Virus record (IMG/VR): IMGVR_UViG_3300031420_000005
Reading direction: 5' to 3' (one strand)
DNA: 64,000 nt
DNA from: an uncultured virus (IMG/VR IMGVR_UViG_3300031420_000005)
Taxonomy: Duplodnaviria; Heunggongvirae; Uroviricota; Caudoviricetes
Program-made: the position numbers and the translations under genes
Part shown: in pieces, positions 23,896 through 31,343 of the stretch
How the letters are laid out: every line of letters starts with the position of its first letter
Numbering within the stretch: position 1 is the first letter of the stretch
The notes under the pieces: model-generated
Told to the model about the DNA's origin: nothing
Seen by the model: the letters and a program-made list of their open reading frames with translations, nothing else
Database searches by the model: none

Positions 23896-24195
23896 ATGGC
23901 TACAGGACGCAAGAAGATCTCAGACAGCGCGGTTGACGAGTTCCATCGGGCGGGCGAGTACGCCGACGGGCTCGAGGGCTTCACCTTCGTGGACGAAGTC
24001 GAAACCGGCGAGTCAGACAACCACGGTGGGGATCTCCTCATGCTCGTGCTCAAGGACTCCAAGGGTACGCTCTACGGGGGCGAATTCGCGCTGCACATGG
24101 GCGAGGGGGAGATCTACGAGTTCCCGGGCTATCTGGTTCCCGTAGAGCGCGTCGAGAAGACCGTCACTGTCGTGAGCTACAAGCCAGTAGGCTGA
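23896..24195 (+). CDS. hypothetical protein
   Basis: 99 aa, codon bias. Confidence 0.65.
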   Translation: MATGRKKISDSAVDEFHRAGEYADGLEGFTFVDEVETGESDNHGGDLLMLVLKDSKGTLYGGEFALHMGEGEIYEFPGYLVPVERVEKTVTVVSYKPVG

Positions 24196-24231
24196 GGATA
24201 CCGGCTAGTAGCTTTCGTGATAGGATCATCC

Positions 24232-24411
24232 ATGAGTCCGCGGTTCGGGCTCCTGGTTTCGATCTCCCTGCGCGGGATCGGATGAGTCCAGACAGCTACC
24301 CGGTAGGCGGCCGCTTCTCCATTCAGATTGTTCTCAGATCTCGCCATCGAGCGTGTAGGCAACGGGTGGATCAGTAGGCGCAGGGTGGTGGTCCACAGAT
24401 TGGCTTACCCC
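24232..24411 (+). ncRNA. Structured kissing-loop leader RNA, copy A
   Basis: After TGaTAGGAT (24218-26); hairpin GAGTCCG/CGGGCTC; loop CCCTGCGC 24266-73 complementary to GCGCAGGG 24378-85 inside a GTGGA/TCCAC stem. Confidence 0.75.
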
Positions 24412-25578
24412 ATGGCACAGAACAACAAGCTCAAGCGTCGGGCTCAGGCCTTCATGGCCGACCACGAGGGTGTGACCTACCTCAACGCCCTCAAGGCGGT
24501 CGATGAACCACTCCACGAGCTCCGGGATCTCGTCTTCGGAGTAGGGTCAGAATACAACTACGGCGGCGCTAGAGGGTTCCGGATCGTCCCTCGTCAGGGC
24601 AGCTACGGCTATGCATTCGGCGATCTCCCGTCTCACAGGGCAGTCGATGAGCTCGAGCTGACGCGATTCGCTTATCCTATGGTTTTCCTTGAGGAGCTCG
24701 TAGACCGCAAGCGGCTCATTCAGAATGCTGGAGTGAGTCACATCTGGGCGTACCGGGAGCTCTACCGTGCTGGGCTGTTGGACAGTGGAGCAAGAGCCCT
24801 TGAGCCCCTCTTCCATCACTTCGATTCGATGATCGGGGAGAGCTATGGTCCTCTGAACAGCTTTGAGTCACACCTGGTGGGGATCTACTCAGTCAATGTT
24901 TCTGACTTCCTCGGTATCTTTGATCGCGGCAACAGCATTCCCGCTACGAAGCTTCAGCTCGAACAGCTCCTGGCGGGGAAGCCAGCAGGAGAGTTCGAAA
25001 CCCTCCCTCAGATCACTGCCGATGGTATTCCAGCCCGTGACTGGACAGACAGCTACGATCTTCTTGCAGTGTCTGGGCAGGCCGATTCCTACGAAAAACC
25101 CAAGCTTTCGATCTTCTTCAAGGGCACTGAGGAGGAGCTGCACAGGGAGCTCGAAGCTAGAGATCTAGACTCCTCCAGGTTCAGAGTCAGGGACATCTCG
25201 ATGCAGGAAGTAGATTTCCACGGGTTTGCCACCTGGATTCAGGCAAAGCTTGCTGACAATACTCTGGTCCATGGCACCACCGAAGAGGTTCTTCTCTGGG
25301 GCACGCAGTCGCCCGCTAAACCCACCATCCTGGAGGTAGCCGAGGGCATCGGCCTGAAGTTCGAGCGCAACGGGGACGGGAGCTTCGTCCTCGACTCGGA
25401 GGGCAAGATCTCCACGGCCTGTCCCTTCCACGAGGATACGGACAGCTTCATCCTGCTCCCCGATCAGGGTGAGCACGGTTTCTTCATGTGCTACAGCTGT
25501 GGCCGCAACGGTAGCCCCGAAAGACTGAGATTGAACTGGGAGAACCCCAACATCCTCGATGAAATAGCTGCAAGCTAG
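24412..25578 (+). CDS. N-terminal basic-tag protein with C-terminal CHC2 (primase-type) zinc finger
   Basis: Start MAQNNKLKRRAQ; CPFHED...FMCYSCG. Confidence 0.8.
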   Translation: MAQNNKLKRRAQAFMADHEGVTYLNALKAVDEPLHELRDLVFGVGSEYNYGGARGFRIVPRQGSYGYAFGDLPSHRAVDELELTRFAYPMVFLEELVDRKRLIQNAGVSHIWAYRELYRAGLLDSGARALEPLFHHFDSMIGESYGPLNSFESHLVGIYSVNVSDFLGIFDRGNSIPATKLQLEQLLAGKPAGEFETLPQITADGIPARDWTDSYDLLAVSGQADSYEKPKLSIFFKGTEEELHRELEARDLDSSRFRVRDISMQEVDFHGFATWIQAKLADNTLVHGTTEEVLLWGTQSPAKPTILEVAEGIGLKFERNGDGSFVLDSEGKISTACPFHEDTDSFILLPDQGEHGFFMCYSCGRNGSPERLRLNWENPNILDEIAAS

Positions 25579-25640
25579 GATCTCAACTAATCTGACCTCA
25601 AGCCCGGTTGTGGAACTGTCTCCACTGTGATAGCATTGCC

Positions 25641-25836
25641 ATGAGCCCAGCGGATTGGGCTCCTGGATCGGACTCCCTGCGCGGGTTCCCCCACAGTCCA
25701 GACAGCTATTCGATGGCGGCCGCTTCTTCACCGTAGGACCCTCTGAACACAGTTCTGCCCACCATGGGCTACAATCGATCAACAGTGGACTCCGGTAGGC
25801 GCAGGCTAGTGGACTCCACGAGATTGGTCTATTCCC
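25641..25836 (+). ncRNA. Structured kissing-loop leader RNA, copy B
   Basis: After TGaTAGCAT; GAGCCCA/TGGGCTC hairpin; CCTGCGC 25676-82 complementary to GCGCAGG 25799-805 inside a GTGGA/TCCAC stem. Confidence 0.75.
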
Positions 25837-27222
25837 ATGGCAACAGTCAACAAGGCACTGAAGAAGCGAGCACAGGCCTTCGCCGAGGAGCACGAGCTCC
25901 CCTATCTCAAGGCGCTCAAGGCCGTCGATGAGCCCCTCCACCAGCTCCGAGATCTCACGGATCCTGAGGAGCTCAAGCGACTGGGCTACCACCCTCACTT
26001 CCGGCTCATCGATGAGAAGGAGAGAGAGCGCGCCGATCCGAAGTCCGCCTACGCCGAGCTCATCGCAGCGAAGTTCCCTGCGGTGAATGCCCATGAGCAA
26101 GTCATCGTGGAGAAGGGACTTCCCCACTTCGCCACACTGGACAATCTCTACGGTGAATGTGGGACTAGGCTCGCCAGGCTTCACCGGGAGGGACTCACAG
26201 ACATCTGGAGCTACAGAGAGCTTCATAGGGCCGGGCTCCTCGGTCCGGAGGCTCAGCCCATGGAGCCGGTTTTCCACTACTTCGGCTGGCATCTCAATCA
26301 GAGCGGAGACTCCGCACTTCCCGGAGAGGGGAAGCTCGGGATCTTCTGTGTGAGCATCGCGGAGGGTCGCTTTCGGGGGACCGGGGGCCTCATCCCTGTT
26401 ACAGAGACTCAGCTCGGGGCACTGAAGTCAGGTGAGTCTATGGAGCGTATCGAGCTGACTCCGCTATCCGAGGCTGGAGCCTTCTACAGGCTGCAGGAAG
26501 CCCATGAGGCACAGACAGCGAAAGAGGAGAAGCAAACCGCTGACCGGGAAAGGGTCAACTACTTCGTAGATCTCATCGACAACTTCCTCGAAGGAATGGA
26601 TCGAAGTGAGCGATCCTCCCTTCGCTCTGTGATTCAAGATCTAGTTTCCCAGGGTGAAGTCACCATAGAGGCCATCGTGACTGAACTTCGAAGTGCTCAG
26701 AGCTCCACCGCTCGGAAACTGGGCACTCGAATCATCCGTGCCACGGGAATCTCAGTAACTGGTACGACCGCTCGGGAAACAGCCGGGCGAGGATCAGCTG
26801 TGGACATTCTGAACGCTCTGGGACTAGATGATGATGAGCTTCGCAGTGCGCGGGAGGAGGTGGCGCTTGAGAAAGCGCGAGAGTCCATGGTGCAATCCAT
26901 GAACTCCCTGTGCTCGACGCTGATATCCAACTTCGACATGCGCTTCGAGGAGAACCGCAAGCTCATTCGGGACTTCGCACTGGGAGAGCTCGACGAGAAC
27001 GGTGGCGCTAACTTCCTCGCGGGGGTCATTCGTACTCTGAGGAGCAGTGACTCTCCCGACGCTAGGTGCATCGGCGCAAGGCTCATCGACGGCCTTGCAA
27101 CTCTGGACGATGCAGACGAAGAGACTTCAGATGAAGTCCACACGCTCATCTCGTCCATGCAGAAAACGGCTACTCGCATCGATGAGATGAGTGGAACTAT
27201 CTCTGTCGTGTACCCCTACTAG
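25837..27222 (+). CDS. N-terminal basic-tag protein, paralog of 24412 and 28771, with helical C-terminal repeats
   Basis: MATVNKALKKRAQ...ALKAVDEPLH; IWSYRELHRAGLL...EPVFHYF. Confidence 0.8.
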   Translation: MATVNKALKKRAQAFAEEHELPYLKALKAVDEPLHQLRDLTDPEELKRLGYHPHFRLIDEKERERADPKSAYAELIAAKFPAVNAHEQVIVEKGLPHFATLDNLYGECGTRLARLHREGLTDIWSYRELHRAGLLGPEAQPMEPVFHYFGWHLNQSGDSALPGEGKLGIFCVSIAEGRFRGTGGLIPVTETQLGALKSGESMERIELTPLSEAGAFYRLQEAHEAQTAKEEKQTADRERVNYFVDLIDNFLEGMDRSERSSLRSVIQDLVSQGEVTIEAIVTELRSAQSSTARKLGTRIIRATGISVTGTTARETAGRGSAVDILNALGLDDDELRSAREEVALEKARESMVQSMNSLCSTLISNFDMRFEENRKLIRDFALGELDENGGANFLAGVIRTLRSSDSPDARCIGARLIDGLATLDDADEETSDEVHTLISSMQKTATRIDEMSGTISVVYPY

Positions 27223-27231
27223 AACAGCGTT

Positions 27232-27278
27232 GATCTCTGGCCGGACAATGCCTCCACGGTACTGTCCGGCCAGAGATC
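27232..27278. repeat. 16-bp perfect inverted repeat (terminator-like or binding site)
   Basis: GATCTCTGGCCGGACA-N15-TGTCCGGCCAGAGATC. Confidence 0.75.
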
Positions 27279-27341
27279 TGTGGTTGGCAGCGAGCTTCCC
27301 GCGGCCTCGCCTCCGTTAGAGATCTGGAGGAAGGAGATCCC

Positions 27342-28427
27342 ATGGCGAAGTTCCACATCAACAAGGCAGGTAACCCCGGTTCCTGTCAAGCCAAGCCTGG
27401 GAACTGTCCCTACGGCAGCGAGCGCGACCACTACAGCAGCAAGGAAGATGCCCGGGAGATCTACGAGGCTCAACAAGAGCTCCTTGCGCAGATCGGCGTC
27501 GGTGGAAAGCATCCTCTGAGCTCCGCCACCGAGACTGCCCTCACTGCGGATCTTCAGCCCCTGGATCAGCAGCCTGCATGGATCTGGGAACACTCATCCA
27601 GGCTCCAGCAGGAGCTCTTCGGTGTGACTCCCCAGGTCATCGCCACCGTGGACAGTCCCCTGGGGCCACTGGCCGTGGTCTGGGAGGAGGCCACCGTGGA
27701 GCCCAACGATCTCGTCTCTGAGGTCGAGGATGGCTACCTGATCTCCCGGATCTCCTACCGGACCATGGCCACCGGTGAGCTCGTGGGTTACCTAAAGACT
27801 ACCTCCATGTCTGAGGAGTCAGTGGCCAAGAGCTTCGGGAACGACGAGTGGCGAGGGCTGCGCTACTCTCGAACCCGGGAGTCCTTCTATCCCATGGATC
27901 GGGAACATGTGCAGGGTCAGCGGGACTACGATCCCCACCAGAGCGCAGAGGACTTCGAGCGTTCCCGGGTAGAGCCTCCGAAGCTTGATAGCAAGGAGAA
28001 GCTCGTAGAGTTCGTGGGCAAGGCCCAGAGTCACTTCCGATCCTACAGCGATACCACTCCTCACTTCATGGATGAGCCGGAGCTCCGCAGTGAGCTCAGC
28101 AGGCTTCAGGAACTCGCCAATGAGAACCTCGATCACTACCGGGAGAGCTTCGAGGAGCCCTTCATCGATTACATCAAGCTCGACCGGGAAGAGCTTCGCG
28201 GCCAGGGACTGGGAGCCTCCCTCTATGTGTTCATGGCGAGGAAGCAGGCTGAGCGTGGACTGCCTCTGCGCGCATCGGGTCTACAGACTCCCGAGGCTGA
28301 GACGAGCTGGCGTACCATGGCTGCTGACACTCGCTTCCCGATTCGGGTAGCCAACAGCCTCTACCGGGATCGGAACAACCGGAAGGTCAGCGCGAGCTTC
28401 TTCCTCGACTTCCGGAACCAAGACTGA
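27342..28427 (+). CDS. N-terminal His/Cys knuckle with C-terminal GNAT-like acetyltransferase
   Basis: FHIN..G.PG.C.A..GNCPYG...HY; LRGQGLGASLY acetyl-CoA motif A. Confidence 0.65.
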   Translation: MAKFHINKAGNPGSCQAKPGNCPYGSERDHYSSKEDAREIYEAQQELLAQIGVGGKHPLSSATETALTADLQPLDQQPAWIWEHSSRLQQELFGVTPQVIATVDSPLGPLAVVWEEATVEPNDLVSEVEDGYLISRISYRTMATGELVGYLKTTSMSEESVAKSFGNDEWRGLRYSRTRESFYPMDREHVQGQRDYDPHQSAEDFERSRVEPPKLDSKEKLVEFVGKAQSHFRSYSDTTPHFMDEPELRSELSRLQELANENLDHYRESFEEPFIDYIKLDREELRGQGLGASLYVFMARKQAERGLPLRASGLQTPEAETSWRTMAADTRFPIRVANSLYRDRNNRKVSASFFLDFRNQD

Positions 28428-28592
28428 CGAGGCTAGGATCGGCCGACAGCTATTCGCAGCTGCCCGGCTAAGGCGCTGACTCCCTGGAACCGATCAACCC
28501 GACGAGCCCGGCGGCTTCGGCGCTCAGAGCGCAGCCTACTGTTGCTGGAGTGGTGTCTGTTGTGCATCCGGAGAATCCGTGATAGGATCTAG

Positions 28593-28770
28593 GTGAGCTC
28601 GCGGTTCGGGCTCCCGGTTTCAGGCTCCCTGCGCGGGTCTGGATGGATCCGGATAGCCCATTGGATGGGCGGCCGACTTGCTCACATTCAGCACTGCCTC
28701 CTTCCCGGGAGGGCTTAGAAGCTAGTGGAGTGGCCAGCGCAGGTCGTCGTTCCACGGAAGTAGCTCAGCC
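28593..28770 (+). ncRNA. Structured kissing-loop leader RNA, copy C
   Basis: After TGaTAGGAT; GAGCTCG/CGGGCTC; CCTGCGC 28628-34 complementary to GCGCAGG 28737-43 inside a GTGGA/TCCAC stem. Confidence 0.75.
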
Positions 28771-30186
28771 ATGGGAAAGATCAGCACCAACACCAACCTC
28801 AAGCGCCGGATCCGCGAGTTCCAGGCTCAGCACGGCGTCTCTCACTCCACCGCCCTCAGGGCCGTGGATGAACCCCTCCACATGCTCCGGGATCTCAGCC
28901 GGCTTCCTCAGTCGATGGCTACTCCGGATCTCAATGAGGCTCGCTTCCGGCTCGTCGGCGACCAGAGTCGCTTCGCTCGATTCCATCAGGAATACTCTGA
29001 GTCCGGAGCTCGCTACATCCGAGACATCTTCGCTCGGTATCAGAGCATGAACTCTCCCAAAGGGCTCCTTCGACTCATCTCCCGGCGCTTTGAGCTCATC
29101 GAGCTCGTAGGAGCGACCGACTTCTGGGGGCTTAGAGAGATTATCCGCGGTGGGGTTGTACTCGTTCCCGAACTCAACGGGGAACCATCCTTCTTCAGCC
29201 CGCCCTTTGCAGCTGAGGATAGGAAGAGACTTCTTGAGCCAGTCTTCTACTTCCACGAGGGGCCACTCGATTCCCGAGTAGCTCATTACCTCAGCGAAGG
29301 CGAGGGGGCTCGACTCGGTATCTTCCCCCTCAACATGCAGGGCATCCTCGAGCTCAACGACCCGGGGGAAGCTGCGGCTATCCCCGTCACTTTCGAAGAA
29401 TCCGGTGGTCTTCTCGACGGGTCGCTCAGGCACAGGCCTCGCTTCCTTCAGCGCTTCAGCCAGAAGCCGGGGTGGACGGTCGAGCAGCGAAGCTACTCGG
29501 TGTTGGCTGAGATCAAAAAGAACTGGGGCGAATCTCAGGTCCGCGTGTTCTTCGGAAACCCCGCTGAGACCATCGAGTCGGCTAAGCTTCGGCTTCAGTC
29601 CATGGGTCTAGATCCCCTGGGCTTCGAACTTCGAGACATTCGCAGAGAACAGCTCACGCTCAACTACGCTGCAGACAGGTTGGAGATTTCTGGCTGGCAG
29701 GACGGTCACTCGATCTCCATGCGGACTGAGCGCACCATCGAACTCGACGGAGAGCTTGCTGCACGGGCCTATCAGGACAACCACCGCGAAGTCGAGGCCC
29801 GACAGGCAGCTGGTTTGAGAGCCCTCGAGGAGCTCGCGGGAATCGCCCACGGCTCTTCAGATGCTAAGGTGCTGCAGTCAATCAGGGAGACCGTCAATCT
29901 CAGGAGCTACTTTGACTTCGTGGGGATCACCACCTACGAGGAGAGGGAAGAGAATGAGTTCACCGTGAGTGCTGACTGTCCCTTCGAGGGCGCCTCCCGT
30001 AGGCTCATCATCAGCCCTGACGGCGGGCACTTCAAGTGCTTCGGCTGTGGAGCGGCCGGAGACCTAGTGAGCCTCGTACAGAGACTCAAGAGGCTCAACT
30101 ACCGAGACGCTGTGAACTACCTCGCGGGTTTTGAGATCACCGAGGGAAGACTCACGAGGCGCAGCTCTCGGGCGCCCAGGATCTGA
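28771..30186 (+). CDS. N-terminal basic-tag protein with C-terminal DnaG-type zinc-binding domain
   Basis: NTNLKRRIRE...ALRAVDEPLH; CPFEG...FKCFGCGAAGDLVSLV...NYRDAV. Confidence 0.8.
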   Translation: MGKISTNTNLKRRIREFQAQHGVSHSTALRAVDEPLHMLRDLSRLPQSMATPDLNEARFRLVGDQSRFARFHQEYSESGARYIRDIFARYQSMNSPKGLLRLISRRFELIELVGATDFWGLREIIRGGVVLVPELNGEPSFFSPPFAAEDRKRLLEPVFYFHEGPLDSRVAHYLSEGEGARLGIFPLNMQGILELNDPGEAAAIPVTFEESGGLLDGSLRHRPRFLQRFSQKPGWTVEQRSYSVLAEIKKNWGESQVRVFFGNPAETIESAKLRLQSMGLDPLGFELRDIRREQLTLNYAADRLEISGWQDGHSISMRTERTIELDGELAARAYQDNHREVEARQAAGLRALEELAGIAHGSSDAKVLQSIRETVNLRSYFDFVGITTYEEREENEFTVSADCPFEGASRRLIISPDGGHFKCFGCGAAGDLVSLVQRLKRLNYRDAVNYLAGFEITEGRLTRRSSRAPRI

Positions 30187-30309: not shown

Positions 30310-30603
30310 ATGAGCATGGCTGAAATGCTTGCCCACCTGTCCGTAGTTGAGAACCCCGGATACCACCTCCGGCACATCCCCAAAGGGGAGCTCGGCGAGC
30401 TCTCCAAGGTCTACGAGGAGATCCTCGAGGCCCTGGATGCAGACGCCCAAGGCGCGTCAGTGATGACCCTCGTAGAGCTCTCCGATCTGCTCGGTGCGCT
30501 AAAGGCCTTCCTGGCCAAGCACCATCCCTCCATCGGTCTCTCCGACCTCGAGGCCTTCTCCTCGATCACCAAGAGAGCCTTCGCTTCCGGAAGGAGGGGC
30601 TGA
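30310..30603 (+). CDS. small all-alpha NTP pyrophosphohydrolase (MazG-like)
   Basis: KVYEEILE...VELSDLLGA fits the EExxE...ExxD pattern. Confidence 0.55.
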   Translation: MSMAEMLAHLSVVENPGYHLRHIPKGELGELSKVYEEILEALDADAQGASVMTLVELSDLLGALKAFLAKHHPSIGLSDLEAFSSITKRAFASGRRG

Positions 30604-30605
30604 CC

Positions 30606-31343
30606 ATGGAGACACCACTGAACTCAGAGCTGTCTCCAGGGCTGCAGACGGATCCTCCCGCGGTGGAGGCCTTCAACGGTGGCCGAAGCCGGGAGCGGGA
30701 GCTCACTCCGGGACTCTCGGACGAGCTCCTCGCTCCGCCGGGCCGAGGAGAGGCCGGACCTCGAGACTACAGGCGGAGGCTGAGCTTCGACTTCTCCATC
30801 ATCGCCCATGCCCAGCAGCACTACGCCGAGCGAGGCTACGAGGACATCCCCGTGCCCTGGGTGATCTCCCGGCAGGCCATGGACTCCACGCTCCCTGCTG
30901 ACAAGGTGCCCTACGAGACCTTCGGAGGCTACCTCGTGGGATCGGCCGAGCAGTCTTTCATCGAGCTCCTCCTCTCGGGTGAGATCCTGGGCCGGGTGCA
31001 GGCCACCACGCCCTGCTTCCGGGATGAGACCCACGATGGGCTCCACAGCCCCTACTTCCTGAAGACCGAGCTCTTTGACAGCACCCTTCCCATGACAGAG
31101 GAGAGTGTGCTCGCGGTCGCAGATGATGCGGGCAGATTCTTCGAGCACTATGTGCCCGTGGAGCTCGAGCGCCAGGGGCCGCTGGCCTGGGATCTAGTCC
31201 ACGCTGAGACCGGAGTGGAGGTCGGATCCTACGGAGTTCGAGAGGTTGCGGGTCACTCCTGGATCTACGGCACGGGAGTCGCCCTGCCGAGGCTCCAGCA
31301 GACCATGGACTCCACCCACGGGCGCTGGAGCGCCACGGACTGA
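30606..31343 (+). CDS. stand-alone class II aminoacyl-tRNA synthetase-like catalytic domain
   Basis: Motif 1 GYEDIPVP, GSAEQ, motif 2 TPCFRDE..YFLKTEL, EVGSYG, motif 3 GTGVALPRL; no tRNA-binding domain. Confidence 0.75.
   Translation: METPLNSELSPGLQTDPPAVEAFNGGRSRERELTPGLSDELLAPPGRGEAGPRDYRRRLSFDFSIIAHAQQHYAERGYEDIPVPWVISRQAMDSTLPADKVPYETFGGYLVGSAEQSFIELLLSGEILGRVQATTPCFRDETHDGLHSPYFLKTELFDSTLPMTEESVLAVADDAGRFFEHYVPVELERQGPLAWDLVHAETGVEVGSYGVREVAGHSWIYGTGVALPRLQQTMDSTHGRWSATD

Follow-up and report, generated by a model that had tools for sequence, protein, structure and literature searches.

A structured leader RNA, probably cis-regulatory, in a recombining module before paralogous genes of an uncultured virus

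Kissing complexes between 7-nt loops are formed by RNA I and RNA II of ColE1 and by L2 and L3 of the purine riboswitches. Autoregulatory mRNA leaders that are bound by the product of their own gene include those of rpsO (protein S15) and T4 gene 32. The put RNA of phage HK022, two stem-loops of about 70 nt, acts on the polymerase. PeSL were reportedly described by Comeau et al. in 2014 as mobile regulatory cassettes of T4-type phages. According to another report, the PeSL of T4-type phages are promoter-plus-stem-loop cassettes that mediate the shuffling of gene modules (Arbiol et al. 2010, PMC2839356). Here we describe a repeated leader in a 64,000-nt stretch of DNA from an uncultured virus of the Caudoviricetes (IMG/VR record IMGVR_UViG_3300031420_000005), called the window below, where it precedes three paralogous genes. 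The sequence comparisons support well its status as a previously undescribed structured RNA family, probably cis-regulatory. The complete proposal, a new cis-acting 5'-leader RNA of about 180 nt that resides in a mobile cassette and controls translation or stability of all paralogs, we regard as evenly balanced.

The likeness to PeSL consists in a repeated cassette with a promoter, here a predicted one, before non-essential genes of ORFan type, in a hyperplastic region of a large phage. However, PeSL are described as small promoter-plus-terminator stem-loops, whereas the cassette of the window contains a multi-helix leader of about 180 nt with compensatory evolution and complementary loops, reaches into the first ~40 codons, and has no evident terminator function. 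Like ColE1 RNA I/RNA II and the purine riboswitch L2-L3 pair, the leader has two hairpins with fully complementary 7-nt loops, but both predicted partners lie in one mRNA leader, ~105-120 nt apart. Like the leaders of rpsO and T4 gene 32, it is structured, ends at the ribosome-binding site, and is more conserved than much of the coding sequence. Unlike in those cases, one leader type serves many diverged paralogs, and no RNA binding is predicted for the proteins. HK022 put, compared by description only, is likewise a structured cis-acting RNA directly downstream of phage promoters, whereas the element of the window exceeds it in size, runs up to the start codon and stands before single genes.

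Three units of the same build occupy positions 24217-28773 on the plus strand. Each consists of an extended -10 element, the leader, and an ATG opening a long open reading frame (ORF). The candidate extended -10 elements, recognized by their conservation, are GTGATAGGAT in units A (24217-24226) and C (28579-28588), and GTGATAGCAT in unit B (25627-25636). The leader copies, about 180-200 nt long, lie at 24231-24411 (A), 25640-25836 (B) and 28592-28770 (C). The ATG of paralog A (388 amino acids, 24412-25578) is directly 3' of leader A, and the ATG of paralog B (461 amino acids, no Zn ribbon, 25837-27222) directly 3' of leader B. Paralog C (471 amino acids, 28771-30186) has a C-terminal CHC2 Zn ribbon (PF01807, E 5.6e-10). 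The mean column identity in the alignment of the three leaders is 73%. Each leader contains one copy of the 12-mer CTCCCTGCGCGG, at 24264, 25673 and 28625, and there is no further copy in the window. A first-pass annotation of the window had named these -10 elements, helices, loops and ATG ends, and all are present in the sequence at the places given.

A covariance model, R1, was built from the three window copies and run over the window and related loci, 208 kb in total. The copies in the window match it with 196.3 bits (A, E 9.5e-52), 143.8 bits (B, E 2e-37) and 178.4 bits (C, E 7.1e-47). The loci come from a scan of JGI metagenome records, which gave 14. Two of these belong to the 178-kb contig of the window: L004 is this contig itself, and L012 another place on it. 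There are 35 matches, and three of them repeat the window's own contig. The remaining 32 non-duplicate copies are spread over 12 related metagenome contigs, 29 of them outside the window, more than expected by chance; the best match there has E 9e-50. Twenty-nine of the 32 have E <= 5.5e-21, and three are divergent (E 9e-5 to 0.08); a fourth divergent copy, L012:9812-10000, was identified by eye. The units are arranged head to tail, three to five per contig (five in L002, four each in L005 and L007), and all full-length matches end at an ATG. The first-pass annotation also spoke of five copies, a number that could not be confirmed for the window: an unfiltered run of the model recovers three there (E 3e-52 to 6e-38), followed by fragments with E 0.045 and 0.048.

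Its impression that no known family fits is borne out by Rfam 15, which gives no match at the gathering score in the whole window and, at E <= 10 over 24150-28850, four weak matches, all of them outside the leaders. Among 50,697 phage records, megablast found no match to 24200-28800, and tblastn of paralog C against phages and plasmids found only Zn ribbon matches, to primases. In IMG/VR, the exact leader pattern had no matches, a looser two-loop pattern gave five loci, none matched by the model, and a protein-pattern scan gave 109 stretches, none a relative. In the GTDB species genomes, a protein scan yielded 200 stretches, again without a relative, and a DNA pattern at least 120 loci. The best matches of R1 over 125 pattern loci from GTDB and IMG/VR (L015-L139) are short fragments with E 0.074-0.88; these loci are chance matches. 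A search of the window for tRNA and tmRNA found none. In a term-based search of the literature, no paper combined four of the five terms describing such a leader. With this leader, the few structured RNAs known from large phages gain a further family, and the covariance model can be used to find more such elements and hyperplastic regions in plant-surface metagenomes.

The leader has a hairpin P1 at or near the 5' end and a helix P2 around P3; next come P4, a hairpin of 4 bp, a middle part that varies, and the long P6 hairpin. An initial RNAalifold consensus of the three copies contained P1, P2 around P3 and a small P4, and beyond these one hairpin in the middle and another on the 3' side. Helix coordinates were mapped from the covariance-model alignment, all on the plus strand. 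In copy A, P1 (GAGUCC/GGGCUC, 24234-24252) starts ~7 nt past the -10 element. It is followed by P2 (CUGG/CCAG) around P3 (UUCGAUCUC/GGGAUCGGA) at 24253-24291, with the P3 loop CCUGCGC at 24267-24273. The mini-hairpin P4 (CUAC/GUAG) and the adjoining GCGGCCGC occupy 24296-24314. P6 (24366-24396) has a 12-bp stem and the 7-nt loop GCGCAGG (24378-24384), and a single-stranded tail without a good Shine-Dalgarno (SD) sequence extends to the start codon (24397-24411). The corresponding positions in copy B are 25643-25662 (P1), 25663-25701 (P2/P3, loop 25676-25682), 25706-25715 (P4) and 25785-25819 (P6, loop 25799-25805), and in copy C 28595-28613 (P1), 28614-28652 (P2/P3, loop 28628-28634), 28658-28668 (P4) and 28725-28755 (P6, loop 28737-28743). 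In the DNA, the P1 strands read GAGTCC/GGGCTC in A, GAGCCC/GGGCTC in B and GAGCTC/GGGCTC in C, and the P2 strands CTGG/CCAG in A and B and CCGG/CCGG in C.

Two hairpins differ in extent from their first description. The P3 loop had been given as 11 invariant nucleotides; it is invariant, but its unpaired part is the 7-mer CCUGCGC, since the flanking bases (U/C-C, G-G/A) are covarying closing pairs (columns 36-38 with 46-48). The terminal hairpin GTGGA/TCCAC with the loop GCGCAGG is present, but the whole P6 stem has 12-14 bp. The segment 3' of P4 (24307-24314, 25716-25723 and 28669-28676) is GCGGCCGC in copies A and B and GCGGCCGA in copy C. The self-complementary GCGGCCGC is kept in most copies of the main subfamily and lost in some lineages and in the divergent subfamily. 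Two further pairings were considered and rejected. Pairing of GCGG in the P1 loop with CCGC of GCGGCCGC is ruled out by A-C mismatches in four lineages. The P4 5' strand and AGUGG form five stacked columns with 98% pairing, but there are C-A mismatches in copies of the L005:9829 type, and we judge AGUGG to be a look-alike of the P4 3' strand.

The helices were evaluated on two alignments. A5 has 35 rows, of which 30 distinct ones were counted, and 42 proposed pairs. As A5 is fitted to the covariance model, the pair count was repeated on A6, a structure-blind MAFFT alignment of 27 full-length copies of the main subfamily (25 distinct rows). In A5, 93.0% of 1141 cells are standard pairs, compared to 82.3% in shuffles. 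Both sides change in 23 of the 42 pairs, a number matched by none of 500 shuffles, and pairing drops to 22-43% if the partners are slid by 1-3 columns. In A6, 89.9% of cells are paired, whereas shuffles give 84.2%; both-sided changes are found in 18 pairs (again matched by 0 of 500 shuffles), and slid partners pair at 29-45%. In A5 the both-sided changes are distributed as two of six pairs in P1 (where 97.8% of cells are paired), three of four in P2, all nine in P3, two of four in P4 and seven of twelve in P6; those in P4 are UA/CG in both alignments. Numerous G-U pairs are seen on the plus strand, e.g. UG in 14 of 30 rows at columns 37-47 of A5. Thus the structure is strand-specific and fits RNA better than DNA.

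The compensatory changes in P1, P2, P3, P4 and P6, present in both alignments, agree with the first-pass conclusion that selection acts on a conserved RNA structure; the covariation it wished to see in a deeper alignment persists, by statistics that ignore kinship. In the four divergent copies the stems are rewritten. P1 is GCGCC/GGCGC instead of GAGCCC/GGGCUC, P2 is CCGU/ACGG or CCAC/GUGG instead of CUGG/CCAG, and P3 is formed by new stems in place of the copy-specific ones of the main subfamily. P4 is CCAC/GUGG in one divergent copy and CUAC/GUAG in the main subfamily. P6 is replaced in three of the four, e.g. by CGCAGU/ACUGCG for GUGGA/UCCAC; in L012:9812-10000, examined by eye, clean P6 pairing was not found. 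We consider it very probable that the leader is a selected, structured RNA.

The P3 loop CCUGCGC and the P6 loop GCGCAGG, both 7 nt long, are exact complements, so the complementarity noted in the first-pass annotation holds over all seven nucleotides. Both loops are invariant in the 25 of 25 distinct rows that have letters there (A5 and A6), and both 7-mers, read by eye, are kept in all four divergent copies despite the rewritten stems. Covarying stems close them in 25 of 25 rows and in three of the four divergent copies. The energy of the loop-loop duplex is -12.6 kcal/mol. In pseudoknot-free ensembles, the duplex has a probability of at least 0.95 in 10 of 27 copies, and otherwise both loops are mostly open. 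A scan for stacked complementary columns found only three stacks of at least six, namely this pairing, P6 and P1. The loops are complementary rather than identical, which favours RNA-RNA pairing over one protein reading both. A contact between the P3 and P6 loops is therefore somewhat probable, as far as complementarity and conservation can tell, and the leader would be a natural test case for an intramolecular 7-bp loop-loop contact beside a ribosome-binding site.

The extended -10 element, the leader and the first ~40 codons behave in sequence comparisons as one recombining module. In 25 complete units (300 pairs), leaders have a mean pairwise identity, calculated crudely as global identity, of 0.74. 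The corresponding value is 0.63 over the first 42 residues of the proteins and 0.41 over residues 61-260. In 14 of the 300 pairs the leaders are at least 0.9 identical and the bodies less than 0.5, and in three the bodies are at least 0.95 identical and the leaders at most 0.75. The switch point lies directly after AVDEPLHELRD, and a leader is always passed on with its N-terminus. As related genomes join the module to different gene bodies, it looks like a portable expression cassette. The first-pass annotation had described a repeated, structured leader, and both properties stand; the module with promoter and N-terminus goes beyond that description.

Comparison of the window with contigs from other runs shows that whole units are gained and lost at the strain level. 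One relative has ~6.5 kb inserted between 24185 and 24217, just before the -10 element of unit A. A second partial unit is bounded at 24217 and 24264, and there are forms without unit B, in which 25523 is joined to 27310. Within the leaders, the small indels listed among strains all lie in the variable middle (24336, 25740-25748, 28679) or just before the ATG (25829, 25831). Shuffling of gene modules by recombination between copies, seen here in the 14 and three pairs and in the strain joints at 24217 and 24264, is a further likeness to PeSL as portrayed in that report. It shows that genes can be shuffled as modules by means of a probably regulatory cassette far more elaborate than PeSL of the T4 type. 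Should the leader turn out to be portable, it may serve as an expression module for actinobacteria.

The pattern TGnTAnnnT is present in all 32 listed copies and ends 3-4 nt before the model start, so that P1 would begin within a few nucleotides of the RNA 5' end. Upstream of it, the paralogs are unrelated except for a weak -35-like TTG. We infer promoter function for the extended -10 element from this conservation. A simple scan found no terminator-like site in or beside the leaders or between the units, although high-GC terminators lacking a T run may escape such a scan; a T run is absent 3' of both P3 and P6. The distance from the end of P6 to the ATG is 15-17 nt. The tail before the ATG contains AGAUUGG in copies A and B. 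Copy C (28756-28760, plus strand) and most relatives have a weak SD sequence, GGAAG or GGAAC, 9-10 nt before the ATG, and the divergent subfamily has a good one, GAAGGAG, at the corresponding tail position. The earlier statement that no leader has a clear SD sequence is therefore about right for A and B, but it overlooked the weak GGAAG of C.

The 5' bases of the leader read NTG (ATG, GTG, TTG or CTG, columns 2-4) and open a short frame, seen at 24232-24285 of the window and in other copies. The frame has 17 codons in 10 of 30 distinct rows and would be a leaderless upstream ORF if the transcription start fell there. Such a 5'-terminal upstream ORF was rejected, as many rows have CTG or TTG as the start, several lineages have another frame through the loop, and the peptide simply mirrors the stems. 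An RNA element reaching into the coding region was rejected as well. Over the 33 aligned codons at the gene start, the major allele has a mean frequency of 0.78 at first, 0.79 at second and 0.62 at third positions. Third positions are the most variable, and thus the N-terminus is conserved as protein.

In the mechanism that we propose, the P3 and P6 loops would kiss and close the leader into one compact body, bringing the 5' domain beside the ribosome-binding region. This body would act in cis, post-transcriptionally and on all paralogs alike, setting translation initiation or mRNA half-life, and its common reader may be a phage or host factor or the ribosome itself. A common reader is likelier than gene-specific control, since the same loops and architecture stand before paralogs with 25-29% protein identity. 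Control of translation or mRNA stability by the leader is a tentative reading of these sequences, at or slightly below an even chance. It is unlikely, though conceivable, that the leader is the shared operator of a self-expanding family, in which one reader (a phage factor or the N-terminal helices) would recognize the fold closed by the kissing loops and thereby co-regulate the paralogs, and recombination would plug in new bodies. In a bolder variant, the loops may pair between the mRNAs of paralogs and link them into a co-regulated RNA assembly.

A number of observations weigh against this reading. The transcription start and the existence of the RNA are inferred from the sequence, and a strict two-hexamer sigma-70 scan called no promoter in the units. 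Single-sequence folding energies do not stand out from those of dinucleotide shuffles (z +0.66, +0.12 and -0.09 for copies A, B and C), and thus it is the comparison of copies, rather than stability, that supports the fold. With the MAFFT alignment as input, RNAalifold produces a different consensus, with the 7-mers in a nested helix, and does not recover P2, P3 and P6. Some isolated column pairs outside the helices reach covariation scores like those of true pairs, because the copies fall into subfamilies, and the shuffle and slide statistics take no account of kinship among the copies. The kissing pairing has no covariation: none of its seven pairs ever varies, and with both loops invariant covariation cannot prove it. 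In the initiation region, the unpaired fraction is only modestly higher than elsewhere in the leader (0.53 against 0.39). Finally, a candidate switch helix, in which the P6 5' strand would pair with a CUCCAC-like motif further upstream, was no better than in shuffles in 25 of 25 copies of the main subfamily (p 0.16-0.96); this pairing looks better in the four divergent copies.

Other explanations share parts of this evidence. The constant company of leader and N-terminus would also be expected if the family proteins, through their N-terminal three-helix segment or their core, bound the leader and repressed their own and each other's translation in the manner of S15 or T4 gp32. An AF2 model has three short N-terminal helices (pLDDT 86-93), and there is a weak profile match to the helices of S15 (E 0.06-0.5). 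However, that match is not significant and has Pfam support in none of 30 members, the matching stretch resembles FtsK/EccC ATPase domains instead, no RNA-binding domain was identified in the family proteins, and adjacency is sufficient to explain the co-inheritance. We consider such autoregulation unlikely. The mosaic leader/body combinations, the strain indels bounded at 24217 and 24264 and the loss of unit B could mean that the block is conserved only as homology for shuffling or by gene conversion, with a fold that has no function of its own. There is a precedent in PeSL, depicted as promoter-plus-stem-loop cassettes that mediate shuffling (PMC2839356). Yet conservation driven by homology predicts neither compensatory changes that keep helices, nor divergent copies in which both complementary loops stay intact while their stems are rewritten, nor a variable middle inside the block, and the chance that recombination is the whole explanation is low. 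The same low probability is given to a leader that, like HK022 put, binds RNA polymerase in cis as nascent RNA and leads to terminator read-through. Structure beginning at or within a few nucleotides of the predicted 5' end in every unit, and the head-to-tail order of units on one strand, would suit it. On the other hand, with a promoter for each gene the need for read-through is not obvious, the element extends exactly to the ribosome-binding region, and the simple scan found no terminator-like sites between units.

A riboswitch, with a small molecule in a junction pocket and kissing loops stabilizing the bound state as in purine riboswitches, would agree with a multi-helix leader that has a predicted loop-loop contact and, in the main subfamily, the conserved unpaired stretches AGACAG and GGCGGCCGC. 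It is very unlikely: the junction sequences are replaced in the divergent subfamily (GGGAAUCUAC...GUAGAAGCUCACUGCA), neither an alternative helix supported in the main subfamily nor a terminator called by the simple scan is available as expression platform, and the downstream genes are paralogs of a non-metabolic type. The first-pass annotation had left the choice between a cis-acting RNA and the RNA half of a ribonucleoprotein. The conserved structured RNA stands, and the cis leader is favoured. A leader cut off as a small RNA or ribonucleoprotein part, or loops pairing between paralog mRNAs, is assigned a very small probability. Any P3 loop could pair with the P6 loop of any other copy, as both are invariant, and the palindromic GCGGCCGC is kept in most main-subfamily copies; but the element always abuts the ATG at a fixed distance, and several lineages, as well as the divergent subfamily, have lost the palindrome. 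The primase-type CHC2 Zn ribbon in nine of 30 members might point to a single-stranded DNA structure, e.g. a priming or replication signal read by Zn-ribbon proteins. This is hardly credible, since the helices use many G-U pairs, which would be weak as G-T, the element is specific to one strand, in the sense orientation of the genes, and lies between promoter and start codon, and 21 of 30 members keep the leader without a ribbon.

The proteins encoded by the three genes share 25-29% identity beyond the conserved start NLKRR...F...H...AL.AVDEPLH.LRDL. Paralog C has seven true relatives in a large protein database, and there are ~42 full-length relatives among 1.84 billion cluster representatives. 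The AF2 model of paralog A, made with 30 family members as input, has pLDDT 78 and pTM 0.70, and a Foldseek search of it against the PDB gave nothing at E <= 0.001. VIA-align of residues 31-203 places the ATPase domains of EccC, FtsK, TcpA and EccCb1 on top (Z 6.3, 5.6, 5.5 and 5.5), with a root-mean-square deviation of 4.6-6.7 over 131-151 residues and Z below the tool's bar of about 8; for this core, Z against FtsK/EccC/TcpA ATPase domains ranges from 5.2 to 6.3. Independently of VIA-align, positions 99-125 of the family profile match a triple FtsK_SpoIIIE ATPase three times. A Walker A motif is not visible at the matching place in the family sequences, and thus the core is apparently a degenerate, ATPase-dead domain of FtsK/EccC type. 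The Zn ribbon, where present, is at the C-terminal end; a protein atlas search returned only Zn-ribbon clusters, with scores below 0.8. The N-terminal motif LKR..R.Y..EH.V.Y..A..AV was also seen in the unrelated small proteins P0120, P0131 and P0133, twice in tandem in P0120, which hints at a small helical domain that exists independently.

Dense arrays of ORFs, mostly on one strand, make up the window and the related loci, and most of these ORFs match nothing in Pfam or PHROG. The few exceptions are a DnaB-type helicase, polynucleotide kinase, FtsK/SpoIIIE-like, ATP-grasp, AP endonuclease, class-II tRNA-synthetase-like and NAD synthase genes. The lineage, one of very large phage-like elements, includes contigs of 178, 193 and 674 kb. 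No capsid or terminase genes were seen in the parts examined, and thus the source element is likely, rather than proven, to be a huge phage. Such phages are full of genes without known function or regulation, and in this one a single RNA fold marks, and probably controls, an expanding gene family. In relatives, an NAD synthase gene lies just upstream of the unit array (L002:1284-2117, L005:12415-13254, L011:6041-6868). Its product is 68-72% identical to Leucobacter NadE and is probably a host-derived metabolic gene, to judge by this similarity. The three sequencing runs with the best DNA matches are labelled as phyllosphere metagenomes. Together with the Leucobacter-like NadE, this points to a Microbacteriaceae-like actinobacterium as the probable host.

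Between units B and C there is an ORF of 361 amino acids (27342-28427) with a good SD sequence, GGAGGAAGGAG, and without a leader. Its position is kept in relatives (L002:8526-9656, L001:729-1859), and Pfam and PHROG gave no match. The spacer between this gene and the unit C promoter contains the 12-mer GACAGCTATTCG (28445-28456, plus strand), identical to the J2/4-P4 segment of leader B, outside any leader and adjoining CGGCCG. It may be the scar or relic of a deleted unit. Downstream of unit C, the region 30310-31343 encodes a protein of 97 amino acids (phrog_6408, E 7e-32) and a class-II tRNA-synthetase-like protein of 245 amino acids (phrog_4806, 'histidyl tRNA synthetase', E 1e-30; PF00152 below the cut-off). 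Both genes are syntenic in L001, L002 and L005.

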